Assembly (NCBI GenBank): GCA_964514235.1
Contig: CAZEPV010000009.1
Span: 1-24,000 of the forward strand
Direction of reading: 5' to 3'
Length of the DNA: 24,000 nt
DNA from: an uncultured Syntrophomonadaceae bacterium
Lineage (GTDB): Bacteria > Bacillota > Syntrophomonadia > Syntrophomonadales > Syntrophomonadaceae
Shown: piece by piece, positions 2,325 through 7,437 of the stretch
Position numbering within the stretch: position 1 is the stretch's first letter
Layout of the letters: the number at the start of each line of letters is the position of its first letter
Translations under genes and position numbers: made by a program
The notes under the pieces: model-generated
Told to the model about the DNA's origin: nothing
What the model saw: only the letters and a program-made list of their open reading frames with translations
Database searches by the model: none

Positions 2325-3182
2325 TCAGTTTTCAAAAACCTGTTTTAGTGCATAAGGAATCTGTTTAATAATATCATATACTTGGGTAGCAGGAGTAGGC
2401 TCAGCCAAGAACCCAGCGATACGGTTTACCTTGGCTGCCTTTGTAGCAGAAGTTACGGTATCAATACCTGCAGCTACAAGTGCTGAAACAATGCCAGTTA
2501 GGGTATCTCCAGTGCCACCTATGGCTTCTAAGACTTCTTCATTAGGTGTGTCAATCTGGGCAAGTATTCCGTCTTGGTTGACCACATAATCAATTACCCC
2601 TTTAACCAGCATGTATTTAGAAGCATTATTATGCTGGTAGGCCTTTCGAATAAGATCAGGCACTCGATTATCTTCATGCAAAATAAAGCCCCGCGTGTAA
2701 AAAGGATGGGGTGCTTTTTCATCAGCTAAATAGGCAAGCTCACCCACATCTGGGGTAAACAAATCAAAAGATGGGGCATCACCACCCATTTTAGCCACAT
2801 ACATAAAGCCCGCATCAGCAATTAAGGTCGGTACTTGGGGCATGGTATTTACAGCGGCCAACAATTCTTTAAACAAAAGCACATCTGGTTGGAAATAGTG
2901 TAATGCCAAAGTTTTGAGGGGTATAGTACGGATCTTGCTTGTTAAGTACTTATAAAGTTTTTCGCACCCCCTGCCATCACCGATGTCCCCAACTAAATAG
3001 GCTGTGGGCTTAGCTTTCCCCATATAATTTAGGGTTGCAACTGCGGCTGCAATCATAGCTGGAGTACCCCGATTTACTGGAATAAGTTTTTCCCCTAAAA
3101 GTAAGTTTTCCCCTTTTAAAGAAACTTCATCATAAACAAGCGGGAAATCCTTTTGGGGAATTGTCCCCACTATGCCGAGCAT
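2325..3182 (-). CDS. Divergent ribokinase-fold protein related to the YjeF-C/NnrD carbohydrate-kinase family; substrate unknown
   Basis: C-terminal GGTGDTLTGIVSALVAAG anion-hole motif, LIADAG...TPDVGELAYL and MLVKG blocks, and the ~285 aa length all resemble the PF01256-type family. The start ATG overlaps the upstream gene by 13 nt. The stop lies 20 nt before the selD start. Confidence 0.7.
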   Translation of the reverse strand: MLGIVGTIPQKDFPLVYDEVSLKGENLLLGEKLIPVNRGTPAMIAAAVATLNYMGKAKPTAYLVGDIGDGRGCEKLYKYLTSKIRTIPLKTLALHYFQPDVLLFKELLAAVNTMPQVPTLIADAGFMYVAKMGGDAPSFDLFTPDVGELAYLADEKAPHPFYTRGFILHEDNRVPDLIRKAYQHNNASKYMLVKGVIDYVVNQDGILAQIDTPNEEVLEAIGGTGDTLTGIVSALVAAGIDTVTSATKAAKVNRIAGFLAEPTPATQVYDIIKQIPYALKQVFEN

Positions 3183-3712
3183 AGCTTCACCACCCGATCA
3201 TAAGCAATTTGCAAAGCATAAGCACAAAGAGTGTGCCCTATATCTAAAGGCTGAGGGCTAACGTCTAAATGTTTATTTACCATTTCCTCAGCTAAATAAG
3301 GAACATCTGGACAACCCCCACCAGAAACATTAACAATTAGCTGGCTGTCTCTATCAATAACAATTTTCATATTTGCTGCCCGAACCATAAGGTATTTTCC
3401 GTATTCCTTTTCATGTAAAAGGTCAACTGGCTCCAACAAAGGACTGTTGACTGGTACAACTTGGGCCGGTTTTATCTTAACTTCGGATAGCTTTCTAATT
3501 ATGAATAATTCCTCTATAAGTGGAAATTCTATCACCAAATCACAACCACTTCGTATTTCTGGAGGTGGGCCTTTTACCTCTATCTTTAGACCTGCAAGTT
3601 CCAAGGTCTTTTTTGCCCTAATAACCTCGGTAGTGTTCTCAAAAACCAATATGCCCCGTTCTATATTTTGTATATTGGGCTTGGCCCGCTTTTTCCGCAA
3701 AAGATTCCTCAT
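3170..3712 (-). CDS. DUF3343-like (putative Se/S carrier) N-terminal domain fused to an uncharacterised Cys-containing C-terminal domain
   Basis: Residues ~20-75 (ILVFENTTEVIRAKKTLELAGLKIEVKGPPPEIRSGCDLVIEF) fit the DUF3343 pattern with its conserved Cys (C57). The C-terminal ~95 aa carry GGGCPDVPY (C134), GHTLCAYAL (C163) and KLCSA (C178). RBS AAAGGGA lies 6 nt upstream of the ATG. Confidence 0.7.
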   Translation of the reverse strand: MRNLLRKKRAKPNIQNIERGILVFENTTEVIRAKKTLELAGLKIEVKGPPPEIRSGCDLVIEFPLIEELFIIRKLSEVKIKPAQVVPVNSPLLEPVDLLHEKEYGKYLMVRAANMKIVIDRDSQLIVNVSGGGCPDVPYLAEEMVNKHLDVSPQPLDIGHTLCAYALQIAYDRVVKLCSA

Positions 3713-3715
3713 ATT

Positions 3716-3934
3716 TTATCCCTTTCTTATGGTAATCCTATAATCGCTATCCTCCGACAGTATTTCTACAAGTTCCCAACCTTTGGATTTGGAAGCACGG
3801 CTTACATTCTCTTTGGCTGTATCGGTGTCTACCATAATTACAATATCACCTTTTTTAAGCTTTTTTATTTTGTTTAAGGTCATAATTACTGGTTGAGGAC
3901 ATGAAAATCCTCTAGCATCAACAATATTATCCAT
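3716..3934 (-). CDS. yedF: TusA/SirA/YedF-family sulfur/selenium carrier protein
   Basis: 72 aa with the N-terminal DARGFSCPQPV motif (CPxP active-site Cys) typical of the TusA/YedF family. It starts 2 nt after the yedE stop, with GGGGGAG as RBS. Confidence 0.85.
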   Translation of the reverse strand: MDNIVDARGFSCPQPVIMTLNKIKKLKKGDIVIMVDTDTAKENVSRASKSKGWELVEILSEDSDYRITIRKG

Positions 3935-3936
3935 TA

Positions 3937-5031
3937 TTAAACTCCCCCTAAAATTCCTTCACGCATGGAAAAACCGATAAGCAAACATACTACAAATCCA
4001 ATCACTAGTGCAATTATTCCCGCTGATGTAACCCCAGCAGCAGAGCTAGCTAGACCGAAATTATGGGCAAAAGCAGCACCTATCACCATACCTAACACAA
4101 ATACGGCTGCATCACCATCGCCTTCCCCGGATAAAAATAGTTGGCGTCCAGGACAACCACCAGCTAAGGTAAAGGCAAGTCCTGAAAGAGCCATACCCGC
4201 GAAATTCCAAAAGTGCATAGTATGGGCTACAGATTGTCCTACAAAGCCTGGATTAAATTGATTAATTAACAAATTGGTAAGAAAAGCAGCTATAAGCAAA
4301 CCGACAATACCAGTAAATAAATGCGCCTGTCTAAATAGGATTAAGTCCCTTATAGCACCCATAGTACAAAAGCGACTCCTTTGAGCTAAAAATCCTATTA
4401 AAAGTCCAATTCCTATGGAAATCATAAGTGGTGCATGCATAGAACCTGGACCCTCTACACTATAGAAAAGCACGCCACTTTGGGCTTGACCTGCAATAAA
4501 TGGATTGAAAATGATTAAAAGCAAAAGGCCAAGCATAATTATAGGAAAGATTAAGCCCGCAGCTTTGTAGGACTTATGGCTGGGCCCCAAATTATAACCA
4601 TTACTAAGGAATCTTGTGCCAATCCAAACACCCACAACCAGTCCTAGTATCCCTAATATAGCATTCCAGTCGCCACCTGCTAAACGAAGCACGGCTCTCC
4701 AGGGACAACCCAAAAATATAAGGGCCCCAATCATAGCAAAAGCACCTAAAACAAATCTGACTATTGGTGCAGAGCCTAAGCGTGGTTTAAATTCCTTGAA
4801 AGCAAATGCTGCTACAAAGGAACCTAAGACAAAACCAATGATTTCTGGCCTTAAATACTGTACAACTGGAGCCCTATGTAAACCCAATGCCCCAGTTATA
4901 TCACGCACAAAACAAGCTACACAAATACCCATATTGGCTGGATTACCCCAAAACTGTAGCAATGATGCTAAAATGCCGATTAGAGCCCCAACCCCTATAA
5001 TGCCCCATCTAGTTGCCAATACATTCCTCAT
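3937..5031 (-). CDS. yedE: YedE-family selenium-metabolism membrane protein (YeeE/YedE sulfur-transport fold)
   Basis: Polytopic membrane protein with paired Cys motifs (GNPANMGICVACFVRD, RSRFCTMGAIRD, GGCPGRQL) characteristic of YedE/YeeE. The ORF track begins at GTG 5046. ATG 5031 is preferred because AGGTGGGG lies 9 nt upstream of it. Confidence 0.85.
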   Translation of the reverse strand: MRNVLATRWGIIGVGALIGILASLLQFWGNPANMGICVACFVRDITGALGLHRAPVVQYLRPEIIGFVLGSFVAAFAFKEFKPRLGSAPIVRFVLGAFAMIGALIFLGCPWRAVLRLAGGDWNAILGILGLVVGVWIGTRFLSNGYNLGPSHKSYKAAGLIFPIIMLGLLLLIIFNPFIAGQAQSGVLFYSVEGPGSMHAPLMISIGIGLLIGFLAQRSRFCTMGAIRDLILFRQAHLFTGIVGLLIAAFLTNLLINQFNPGFVGQSVAHTMHFWNFAGMALSGLAFTLAGGCPGRQLFLSGEGDGDAAVFVLGMVIGAAFAHNFGLASSAAGVTSAGIIALVIGFVVCLLIGFSMREGILGGV

Positions 5032-5203
5032 AAATATAATCCCCACCTATAAAAATTTTGTATACTATGAATTAAATAACAGTATAATCCAACATCTTGT
5101 ATAGGGGAAATAGATTTTTTCTGGATAAAAATTTATTTTAATTGGTTTTTCCTATAGTTAAAAAATTATTCATGCTAGCCTTGAATGCTTAAGTAGATTT
5201 ATC

Positions 5204-5250
5204 CGAATAAAAGACCCCCGAAATTAGACTTTCTTTCTAACTTCAGGGGT
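5204..5250 (-). terminator. Rho-independent terminator of the 5322-6284 gene
   Basis: The minus strand reads ACCCCUGAAGUUAGA-aagaaag-UCUAAUUUCGGGGGU, a ~14-bp stem with G.U pairs, followed by CUUUUAUU. Confidence 0.75.
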
Positions 5251-5321: not shown

Positions 5322-6284
5322 TTACACATCCTCAATTTTTTTAGTAAGCAGAATTTCCTTTCTCTTTCTTACCATTTCATCATATTTAAAATAATATCTT
5401 TTTTTATTATAATATCTGTTAAAGGTAGTAACATATTGTTTTGAATCAAAATATCTTTTTAACCGATTAGAAACTGAATGGATCTGCTCCCCAGGATCAT
5501 ATACTGCAGGGGTACCTTTATGATAATCTATAATGGTTCCCGTAATTACCCCCCAGGAAATATCAGCTAGTGAATATCTCCTAAGATCCCGCACGGCTGC
5601 CCTAAGTATGGCCTCCTGAATTGGGTCAAAAAATTGAAATTCTTTAGAATACATTATAGCACCATGCATATGATTGGGAATATCTAAAAAACCGTCTTTA
5701 AAGACTTGTCGCGATATGTCCCGCAGGAGTTGAAAACAATATTTAAGTATGCCTAGACCCGGGGTAGTTTGACCTGGCAATTGTGGTCTACTACCATCAA
5801 AAACCGCCCGTGGGTTTTTGGCTGACAACCATTCAATAAGAATCATATTGTAGGGTTCAATCCTAGTTCCTTCCTCAAAAAAGCGCTCATGGGGAATAAA
5901 GGTATGTTCACTAACCCTGAGGTCAATAAGCTGGTTTTCTATAGTTTTATCCTTCCAGTAGAGTTTAAAATAGTTTATGTAGTTTGCGTCTCGGTCAATA
6001 TCAATATCAATATCGGAAAAACCCATAGATTCAAGATGCTTTAATAGTCCAATAGATTCAATAACACTAAATATCTCTTCCTTTGAAAACCTCCCCATGA
6101 ATTTCGTTTGGGCAGAACTCTGAAAATTATCAAATGCACTACTTAAATCAATTTGACTAAAATCAAATTCGAAGGAATCAGAAAGACTAAATGTATCTGT
6201 AATGCTGGGATTAACCCTTCTAAAGCTTTTTAATCTATTTGCCTTGCTTCTTCTTGGTGCCAATGGAATACTCCTTTCAGTCAT
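5322..6284 (-). CDS. Hypothetical protein, no family recognised (320 aa from ATG 6284)
   Basis: Long ORF with its own terminator. ATG 6284 has GGAAGG 11 nt upstream, whereas the track start at 6314 has no RBS. The N-terminus is an acidic, Ser-rich low-complexity region, and the C-terminal ~200 aa look globular (RPQLPGQTTPGLG, IPNHMHGAIMY). Confidence 0.7.
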   Translation of the reverse strand: MTERSIPLAPRRSKANRLKSFRRVNPSITDTFSLSDSFEFDFSQIDLSSAFDNFQSSAQTKFMGRFSKEEIFSVIESIGLLKHLESMGFSDIDIDIDRDANYINYFKLYWKDKTIENQLIDLRVSEHTFIPHERFFEEGTRIEPYNMILIEWLSAKNPRAVFDGSRPQLPGQTTPGLGILKYCFQLLRDISRQVFKDGFLDIPNHMHGAIMYSKEFQFFDPIQEAILRAAVRDLRRYSLADISWGVITGTIIDYHKGTPAVYDPGEQIHSVSNRLKRYFDSKQYVTTFNRYYNKKRYYFKYDEMVRKRKEILLTKKIEDV

Positions 6285-6435
6285 AAATAAAATGACCTTC
6301 CAACCCCAAATCATAAAAACATAAACCTATTAATAGTCTATCCTACTTGCCAAAGTATTGTTAGTAAAAAAGTATCTTTATAAAGCATGAATATAAAATC
6401 CTAGATTTCTCCACATAATCCACACTATCCCCTTC

Positions 6436-6565: not shown

Positions 6566-7033
6566 ATGGCTAAAAAGGGTATTAAGCCTGTAGTAAGTAA
6601 TCGCCGAGCTAGATATAATTACCATATAAAAGATGTCTACGAAGCTGGTATAGTCTTAAAAGGAACTGAGGTAAAATCACTGCGCATGGGCAAGGGTAAT
6701 CTACAGGATGCTTTTGCTGTTGTGAGAGATGGTGAAGTATGGTTGAATAATTTTCATATTAGTCCATATGATAAGGGTAACCGTTTTAATCATGATCCGG
6801 TAAGACCTCGAAAGCTCTTGTTACACCGCAGGGAAATTAACCGATTGCTGGGTTTGCAACAGGAAAAAGGCTATACTTTGATACCTTTACAAATATATTT
6901 TAAAAATAGTTTAGCCAAAGTTGAATTGGCCGTAGCAGTAGGTAAAAAACTTTATGATAAAAGGGAAGATATAGCTAAACGCGATGCTAAAAGGGATATG
7001 GAAAGGGCTTTTAAAGAAAAAACTTTAACTTAA
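6566..7033 (+). CDS. smpB: SsrA-binding protein SmpB
   Basis: 155 aa with NRRARYNY...[15 protein letters not shown]...LLLHRREI motifs typical of SmpB. RBS is GAGGTG. The gene lies immediately upstream of tmRNA. Confidence 0.95.
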
Positions 7034-7084: not shown

Positions 7085-7437
7085 GGGGGCGTACTGGTTT
7101 CGACGGGGGAAAAGATGGGTTGAGTAGCGAGCCGAGTTGTCGCCAGCTCGTTAAAAAGGTGAAAACATTAAATTAACTGCAGAAGATAATTTTGCACTAG
7201 CAGCGTAAAGCTGCTCGTCCGGCTAAGTAACCTCGTGGCTTAGTGCAGGGCGTCACATAGCGAGGGTACCCTAAGGTCTTCTTTCTCGAGGGGCTTTAAG
7301 GGGAAATTTATCGAGGATAGCCTTAAACAGCCAGTTCATGGGCGGTGGTTAGGCGAAATTCAAAACATGGACTGCGCTCGGAGAGACTCTGCTGGTCTTT
7401 CTTTCGGACGGGAGTTCGACTCTCCCCGCCTCCACCA
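7085..7437 (+). ncRNA. ssrA: tmRNA (ssrA), tag peptide ...AEDNFALAA
   Basis: The 5' end is GGGGGCGUACUGGUUUCGACGGGG. The 3' end is GGACGGGAGUUCGACUCUCCCCGCCUCCACCA (T-arm, acceptor and CCA). The internal tag frame GCA GAA GAT AAT TTT GCA CTA GCA GCG TAA sits at 7179-7208. The gene is adjacent to smpB. Confidence 0.95.

Follow-up and report, generated by a model that had tools for sequence, protein, structure and literature searches.

A candidate selenium relay protein with DUF3343 and DUF8182 domains and a kinase-like partner in a Syntrophomonadaceae operon

A stretch of 24,000 nucleotides (nt) from an uncultured Syntrophomonadaceae bacterium (assembly GCA_964514235.1, contig CAZEPV010000009.1, positions 1 to 24,000 of the forward strand; referred to as the window) was analyzed around a minus-strand gene at 3170–3712. 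Its product, the target, is a protein of 180 amino acids (aa) with an N-terminal DUF3343 and a C-terminal DUF8182 domain. With a probability of roughly 60%, the target is the cysteine (Cys) form of a conserved subunit for the relay or processing of selenium (chalcogen), which acts with a kinase-like partner upstream of selenide, water dikinase (SelD). This reading is built on the domain architecture, the conservation of C57, C134 and C163, a four-gene module, natural fusions with the kinase-like protein, the interchange of Cys and selenocysteine (Sec) at position 134 and the linkage to selD. The capture of trace selenium by bacteria, its separation from far more abundant sulfur and its delivery to SelD are incompletely understood, with YedE, YedF and DUF3343 as computational candidates since 2015. 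The locus suggests a defined, testable unit, in which a three-Cys carrier with one Cys/Sec-interchangeable residue is coupled to a presumably nucleotide-dependent enzyme. It also opens a way to the function of two uncharacterised domains and of an orphan ribokinase-superfamily branch.

Domains, conserved cysteines and selenocysteine forms

The open reading frame (ORF), motifs and neighbours of the gene were found as described in an earlier note made from the letters of the window; the strand was corrected to minus. At E ≤ 1e-3, more than 4,300 database proteins matched the target, and the top 120 were 66–100% identical over the full length. By this number of homologues and their full-length identity, the target is a real gene and a chance ORF was excluded. 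An identical database protein (P0001) carries the precomputed Pfam labels PF11823 and PF26554 (DUF8182), and the latter is borne by all close homologues as well.

For the N-terminal half, residues 20–86 (3455–3655) were matched by Pfam PF11823 (DUF3343, Se_S_carrier) with E 2e-17 and 62.8 bits (cut-off 25) over profile positions 2–68 of 69. The domain carries C57 (codon 3542–3544) in the motif PPPxxRxGCD, which reads RSGCDLVIEF in the target. A DUF3343 domain with its conserved Cys at the N-terminus had been proposed before; profile match and Cys retention (259 of 260 homologues) both assign this half as a bona fide member of the family.

The C-terminal half (residues 87–180; 3173–3454), which the earlier note could not place in any family, very likely belongs to DUF8182 as judged from the precomputed labels. 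The domain was thus already catalogued, under a label without function. A Pfam scan of residues 85–180 with a model set lacking PF26554 gave no match, no NCBIfam model matched the target or its Sec-type forms, and neither DUF8182 nor PF26554 was mentioned in the searchable literature. A HMMER search with residues 85–180 against 1.84 billion representative proteins returned 99 clusters, a number that marks the family as narrow. In 41 clusters the domain lay C-terminal to DUF3343, and 49 were short fragments. The nine odd representatives left were rejected as evidence for stand-alone DUF8182 or other architectures and look like frameshifted or chimeric singletons.

An AlphaFold2 (AF2) model of the DUF8182 domain had a predicted local distance difference test score (pLDDT) of 91.9 and a predicted template modelling score (pTM) of 0.81. 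It consists of a four-strand antiparallel beta-meander (residues 99–131), followed by helices at 137–144, 155–158 and 162–179. Alignments and model agree with the expected conserved, well-folded and Cys-bearing domain of about 95 aa. Neither an unconserved or disordered C-terminus, nor unconserved Cys residues, nor a failure of the DUF3343 profile was encountered.

A Foldseek search of the C-terminal domain, as had been suggested, was run against the PDB and did not achieve a family placement by fold: nothing significant was returned, and the best match (E 0.17, query TM-score 0.35), a beta-meander of about 37 residues in LacZ, was rejected as the DUF8182 fold. Sequence and profile searches of the PDB with the target left the DUF8182 region unmatched, profile matches being confined to the kinase part, and a sequence match to L19 was judged a chance hit. 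Two further candidates came from a permissive Pfam scan. DUF749 matched the window domain with E 0.068 and 25 of 121 family members (best 0.017), and FKBP26_IF matched about 20 residues in 82 of the 121 members (best 1.9e-5). Both represent short beta-hairpin matches without Foldseek support and count as weak leads at most. The TusA/SirA family (PF01206) did not match the target at E ≤ 0.1 or residues 85–180 at E ≤ 10. A TusA identity of the domain was also rejected on topology, since a meander with three helices differs from the two-layer alpha/beta sandwich of TusA and the likeness is confined to a Cys-Pro where a helix begins.

For conservation analysis, 260 full-length homologues were used, including distant clades, fusion proteins and the proteins of 83 genomic loci. 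Besides C57, the target contains C134 (codon TGT, 3311–3313) in NVSGGGCPDVPY, C163 (TGT, 3224–3226) in GHTLCAYAL and C178 (TGC, 3179–3181) in KLCSA. C57, C134 and C163 were each present in 259 of the 260 homologues. All three were missing from the single exception (P0210, 195 aa, a representative protein), a degenerate paralogue that kept the fold motifs (IVNISGGGFPDIPF) and lost these residues together. All four Cys were invariant among the closest 120 homologues. C178, whose context had also looked conserved, was found in 203 of the 260 proteins, with L, F, Y, W or A in the others, and was absent from the fusion proteins; in the alignments it is a clade-specific and not a family feature. Three of the four Cys thus passed the conservation check and C178 failed it.

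The best-conserved stretch of the target surrounds C134, with S130, G131, G132 and G133 invariant and C134, P135, D136, V137 and P138 near-invariant. In the AF2 model C134 (SGGGCPDVP) sits on the loop that joins strand 4 to helix 1, where the helix begins, and is proposed as the catalytic or carrier residue. C163, in the motif [TS]-[LI]-C, belongs to the initial turn of the long last helix and is retained in the Sec-type clades described below.

The window gene has a Cys codon at position 134 and is not itself a selenoprotein gene. For detection of Sec forms in other loci, metagenome contigs were scanned with the back-translated pattern V-N-x-S-G-G-G-TGA-P-D-[VI]-P, in which TGA was required at the C134 codon. 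Matches were obtained on 26 contigs (L084–L109). In 25 of them the frame was open across the TGA, with DUF3343 (GCD kept) upstream and about 45 conserved codons downstream that include PD[IV]P and a [TS][IL]C equivalent of C163. The Sec-type sequences split into two divergent clades, and tblastn with the window domain spanned the TGA in one alignment. A kinase-like homologue followed 3' of every Sec-type gene with a sufficiently long contig, and the neighbours included split YedE/YeeE-like membrane proteins and TusA-like proteins. Two loci (L092 and L101) contain two carrier-kinase pairs each, a Cys-type set in the order yedE-carrier-kinase-tusA and, some kb further downstream, a Sec-type pair.

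When the protein database was searched with a clade-A query, the matches comprised about 30 full-length Cys forms (172–213 aa, 70–82% identity, SGGGCPDIP) and about 60 clusters of 125–131 aa from Dehalococcoidia/Chloroflexota that end in '...IVNISGGG'; P0385, found on 62 contigs, ends in '...SGGA' instead of '...SGGG'. The short '...SGGG' entries are interpreted as gene calls that break off at the UGA. In public records, the truncated entries (among P0365–P0427) are named hypothetical or 'DUF3343 domain-containing protein'. A set of predicted selenoprotein genes of Dehalococcoidia is thus cut short at the UGA by current annotation. The read-through frames together with the Cys relatives argue for genuine Cys/Sec pairs at position 134, so that C134 shows the pattern commonly seen for residues in catalysis, redox chemistry or chalcogen transfer.

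The predicted Sec variants of the DUF3343-DUF8182 family are a new finding. The family is absent from the 2026 selenoprotein family table and is covered by no NCBIfam model, and DUF3343 is not mentioned in the 2026 selenoproteome review or the BSepDB paper.

Kinase-like partner and four-gene module

The gene downstream of the target (2325–3182, minus strand) encodes a ribokinase-superfamily (NnrD/ThiM-like) protein of 285 aa with a GGTGD motif. The target stop codon (3170–3172) lies 13 nt inside this gene, whose ATG is at 3182–3180; the overlap (3170–3182) reads ATGCTCGGCATAG on the minus strand (3182–3170). The kinase-like gene was found in 81 of the 83 related loci. A stop/start overlap of 7–16 nt was conserved in 78 of these 81 and measured exactly 13 nt in 48.

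Natural fusions with the order DUF3343-DUF8182-linker-kinase were represented by proteins of 500–590 aa. In a dedicated search the fusions formed about 43 clusters, and one cluster recurred on 37 contigs; the low-complexity linkers indicate genuine fusions and not read-through artefacts. The kinase part of one fusion (P0129) was 44% identical to the window 285-aa protein over the full length. An AF2 model of another (P0239) had a pLDDT of 90.2 and a pTM of 0.90, with the linker alone disordered and the DUF3343 domain folded as beta-alpha-beta-beta-alpha-beta. The pTM for three domains points to a confidently packed assembly in the model. From the overlap in the window, coupled translation had been suggested, and possibly a complex of the two products. 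With the conserved overlap, the three-domain fusions and the compact fusion model, both coupled translation and a complex of target and kinase-like protein are strongly supported as predictions.

The kinase-like protein was matched by Pfam PF01256 (Carb_kinase) with 41 bits (cut-off 27). Its score against the NnrD equivalog TIGR00196 was 37.8 bits (cut-off 129.85), and the ThiM equivalog was also far from reached. Foldseek with the kinase part of the fusion model retrieved ribokinases and, with the lowest root-mean-square deviations and at 13–15% identity, YxkO/NnrD (1kyh, 3rph) and EF1790, and a profile match to the ThiM-like 3dzv extended across the GTGD region. The GGTGD anion-hole/catalytic motif is retained, and the family has motifs of its own (ADAGFMYxAK and FTPDxGELAFLADExAPHPFYTRGF). 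By these sequence comparisons, the protein is assigned to an orphan branch of the ribokinase superfamily and not to the NAD(P)HX repair enzymes.

In the window, the operon has the order yedE, tusA/yedF, target, kinase-like gene and selD, all on the minus strand. Spacers among the first four genes are 2–3 nt or negative, and 20 nt (2305–2324) precede selD. These tight spacers argue for a single packed operon, in a selenocysteine-decoding organism. The first gene (3937–5046) encodes a putative selenium transporter of the YedE family, matched by TIGR04112 (seleno_YedE) with E 1.5e-145 and 484.6 bits, above the cut-off of 200, vs 36.9 bits for the TsuA model NF052577. A terminator-like hairpin (5214–5250) separates yedE from the preceding gene. 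The second gene (3716–3934) encodes a TusA/YedF-like protein of 72 aa with a sulfurtransferase fold and a CPxP Cys motif (FSCPQP); Pfam TusA matched with E 3.7e-19, and TIGR03527 (YedF) was matched over positions 1–67 with a score under its cut-off. The target is accordingly flanked by a TusA/YedF-like and a Carb_kinase-like gene, as had been described with a YedF and a kinase-fold enzyme on its two sides.

The last operon gene, selD (1261–2304; TIGR00476, E 1.1e-110), has an in-frame UGA at codon 16 (2257–2259) that reads AAG-U-AAK, indicating a Sec-containing SelD. The ORF listing of selD shows just the part after the UGA (1261–2184). A 7-bp hairpin at 2251–2269 (GGCUGCU...AGCAGCC) encloses the UGA itself. 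Convergent with selD on the plus strand is a LysR-family regulator (299–1264), a candidate LysR_Se; the 3' ends of the two ORFs overlap at 1261–1264. The LysR_Se subfamily was proposed in PMC5322559.

For the distribution of the module, one genome per species was scanned. Relatives of the target were carried by at least 573 genomes, all of anaerobic lineages; the matches listed included Bacillota, Desulfobacterota, Synergistota, Atribacterota, Thermodesulfovibrionales and Leptospirales. The order yedE, tusA/yedF-like, target, kinase-like was constant across the 83 related loci wherever the contig reaches. Hypothesis-free clustering of the neighbouring ORFs recovered just three further recurrent neighbours: selD, LysR and a DUF1858-like protein. 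By tblastn, selD was found within the fetched flank of 30 of the 83 loci and was the sole recurrent non-module enzyme. LysR homologues occurred in 25 loci; in 10 loci (L004, L009, L013 and L029 are examples) homologues with 56–67% identity directly followed the kinase gene or selD. In the literature, no kinase was found to be linked to yedE and selD.

The DUF1858-like CxxC mini-protein was found in 15 Desulfobacterota loci (L035:4586–4819, L039, L040, L044, L045, L048, L050 and others). It has about 75 aa, resembles DUF1858 by eye, contains C-x-C-C (…AGECICCQALF…) and is often located 3' of the kinase-like gene; it is possibly a small dithiol partner. In Dehalobacterium formicoaceticum (L001/L002:9437–9850), a non-recurrent protein of 137 aa with a weak MoaE match is encoded directly 3' of the kinase-like gene, perhaps a sign of a connection with molybdopterin or with selenium-dependent molybdenum hydroxylases. 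An orthologue of the target on the Peptoclostridium acidaminophilum plasmid CP007453 (L003:8001–8546, P0111) is misnamed 'carbohydrate ABC transporter ATP-binding protein, CUT1 family'.

Proposed relay and competing explanations

The module belongs to the known class of selenium/sulfur trafficking systems with YedE, YedF and DUF3343. YedE has been found only in selenium-utilising organisms, DUF3343 has been tied to selenium trafficking (Lin et al. 2015, PMC5322559), and DUF3343 proteins, which carry a highly conserved Cys, were proposed as selenium/sulfur chaperones in the same work. In addition, yedF and duf3343 are among the top genes that overlap selD (bioRxiv 10.1101/2022.04.13.486033). 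What the locus adds to this class is an uncharacterised domain, for which the structure searches gave no relative, and a predicted nucleotide-dependent enzyme as obligate partner. Stand-alone DUF3343 proteins share the N-terminal domain and its conserved Cys with the target and likewise cluster with yedF, yedE and selD. In contrast to the described proteins of 80–100 aa, the target is extended by DUF8182 (95 aa), which contributes two further invariant Cys, and it comes paired with, or fused to, a protein of the ribokinase superfamily.

Other known systems resemble parts of the locus. As in TusA, YedF and YeeD, a helix preceded by a beta strand begins with a nucleophilic Cys-Pro (CPxP vs GGGCPDVP), and as in YeeE-YeeD (TsuA-TsuB), a small carrier stands beside a transporter of the YeeE/YedE family. 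Carriers of the SirA/YedF type also include Sec forms. DUF8182 nevertheless has no sequence match to TusA and another topology, and a true TusA-like gene is already present directly upstream of the target. The partner shares fold and GGxGD with NnrD (YxkO, 1kyh/3rph) and ThiM, lid-less members of the ribokinase superfamily that phosphorylate a hydroxyl with ATP or ADP, after which NnrD eliminates. It differs from both in its low identity to solved structures, its scores under the equivalog cut-offs, its own motifs and its coupling or fusion to a Cys/Sec carrier. On the N-terminal glycine-rich loop of SelD, a residue is Cys or Sec depending on the organism. This loop (AAGUAAK in the window) resembles SGGG[C/U]PD of DUF8182; the likeness concerns the loop only, folds and proteins being unrelated.

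In the proposed relay, YedE would import selenium species and the TusA/YedF-like protein would be the first selenium acceptor. Selenium would then move on to the cysteines of the target, with C134 as the presumed principal nucleophile. The target would act in an obligate complex with the ribokinase-superfamily protein from the overlapping downstream gene, a nucleotide-binding partner that may help to process the bound adduct, and the product would be handed to SelD for selenophosphate synthesis. Selenium and not sulfur as the cargo, the order of transfer, the use of ATP by the partner on the carrier-bound adduct and the delivery to SelD are what we infer for the window operon. A persulfide or perselenide hand-off had been suggested before for the target; a chalcogen role of C134 gains support from the replacement of Cys by Sec, while the hand-off itself is a step that we still infer.

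A more specific version of the relay is speculative and rather unlikely to hold as a whole. In this version, target and kinase-like partner would form an unrecognised ATP-dependent selenium-activating enzyme, in which the kinase phosphorylates a selenium oxyanion or Se-OH adduct on Cys/Sec134. Reduction of this adduct by neighbouring thiols (those of C57, C163 and the TusA Cys) could then give a protein-bound perselenide as the supply for SelD. Such ATP-driven activation would be formally like that of sulfinic acid by sulfiredoxin, or like the phosphorylate-then-eliminate chemistry of NnrD. If true, it would provide the specific step that is missing in anaerobes to connect the import of selenium with the synthesis of selenophosphate, and DUF8182 would represent a new catalytic fold and a new, mis-annotated selenoprotein family.

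Several points weigh against a selenium relay. Characterised members of the YeeE/YedE family, which includes YedE, move thiosulfate. DUF3343 also occurs in organisms that lack SelD (PMC5322559). Deletion of yedE in Methanococcus maripaludis did not give a clear selenium-uptake phenotype (PMC11097638), so the role of YedE as a transporter is unproven. In 53 of the 83 related loci, selD was not found in the fetched flank, many of these contigs being short. Finally, hairpins that resemble a selenocysteine insertion sequence (SECIS) were seen 17–38 nt after the TGA, in clade A as a short hairpin with a GGU loop about 17 nt past the UGA and one compensatory change, and shuffled sequence folded just as well (z about -1 to 0). 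As the SECIS evidence is weak, the Sec assignment is based on conservation of the reading frame and on the Cys/Sec pairs.

Part of these points would also fit a module that serves sulfur. YedE would then import thiosulfate or zero-valent sulfur, TusA, the carrier and the kinase would relay and activate a persulfide for a thio-cofactor or for sulfur assimilation, and the linkage to selD would be secondary. Besides the SelD-lacking organisms with DUF3343 and the 53 loci without selD in the flank, the homology of YedE to the thiosulfate transporter TsuA/YeeE (with the weak NF052577 match), the TusA fold as a sulfur carrier and the weak MoaE-like gene downstream in one locus agree with this explanation. 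We consider it unlikely, as YedE scores 484.6 bits against the selenium-linked TIGR04112 vs 36.9 against TsuA, selD is the sole recurrent non-module enzyme (30 of 83 loci) and occurs alongside LysR homologues, and the window selD follows 20 nt past the kinase gene and has a Sec codon of its own.

Equally unlikely is a redox or metal site formed by the three Cys in place of a cargo carrier. C134 and C163, with or without C57, could be a dithiol-disulfide electron donor to selenium bound to YedF or SelD, or a metal or Fe-S site that regulates the kinase-like enzyme. The joint loss of all three Cys in P0210 is consistent with such a site, as is the DUF1858-like CxxC protein beside the module in 15 loci. 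The exchange of Cys for Sec in many thiol-oxidoreductases and in some metal sites (PMC13188914) also speaks for it; the same source lists Sec forms of rhodanese-like and DsrE-like carriers and of DUF1858 proteins (CxxU). However, the target has no CxxC spacing and no fourth conserved ligand, His160 being unconserved, and a Gly-rich loop where a helix starts would more typically mark a site of the anion or nucleophile type. Moreover, the family of the N-terminal domain has been proposed to act as a carrier, and a redox or metal role would in part be compatible with the selenium relay.

For the kinase-like neighbour, the Pfam Carb_kinase match and public names ('sugar kinase', 'NAD(P)H-hydrate dehydratase') might suggest a common NAD(P)HX dehydratase or sugar kinase whose adjacency is meaningless. 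This explanation is highly improbable given 37.8 bits against the TIGR00196 cut-off of 129.85, 13–15% identity to solved NnrD structures, a gene order and overlap that are constant across phyla, a pairing that persists in the divergent Sec-type clades and the approximately 43 natural fusions, which effectively refute it.

Other features of the window

Upstream of the operon, an ORF of 330 aa (5322–6314, minus strand) gave no significant match in Pfam or NCBIfam (best Pfam E 0.033, far under the cut-off) and is followed by the strong terminator-like hairpin at 5214–5250. On the plus strand, a transfer-messenger RNA gene (7085–7437; Rfam RF00023, 187 bits) lies directly downstream of an ORF of 155 aa (6566–7033), which is smpB-like by eye only.

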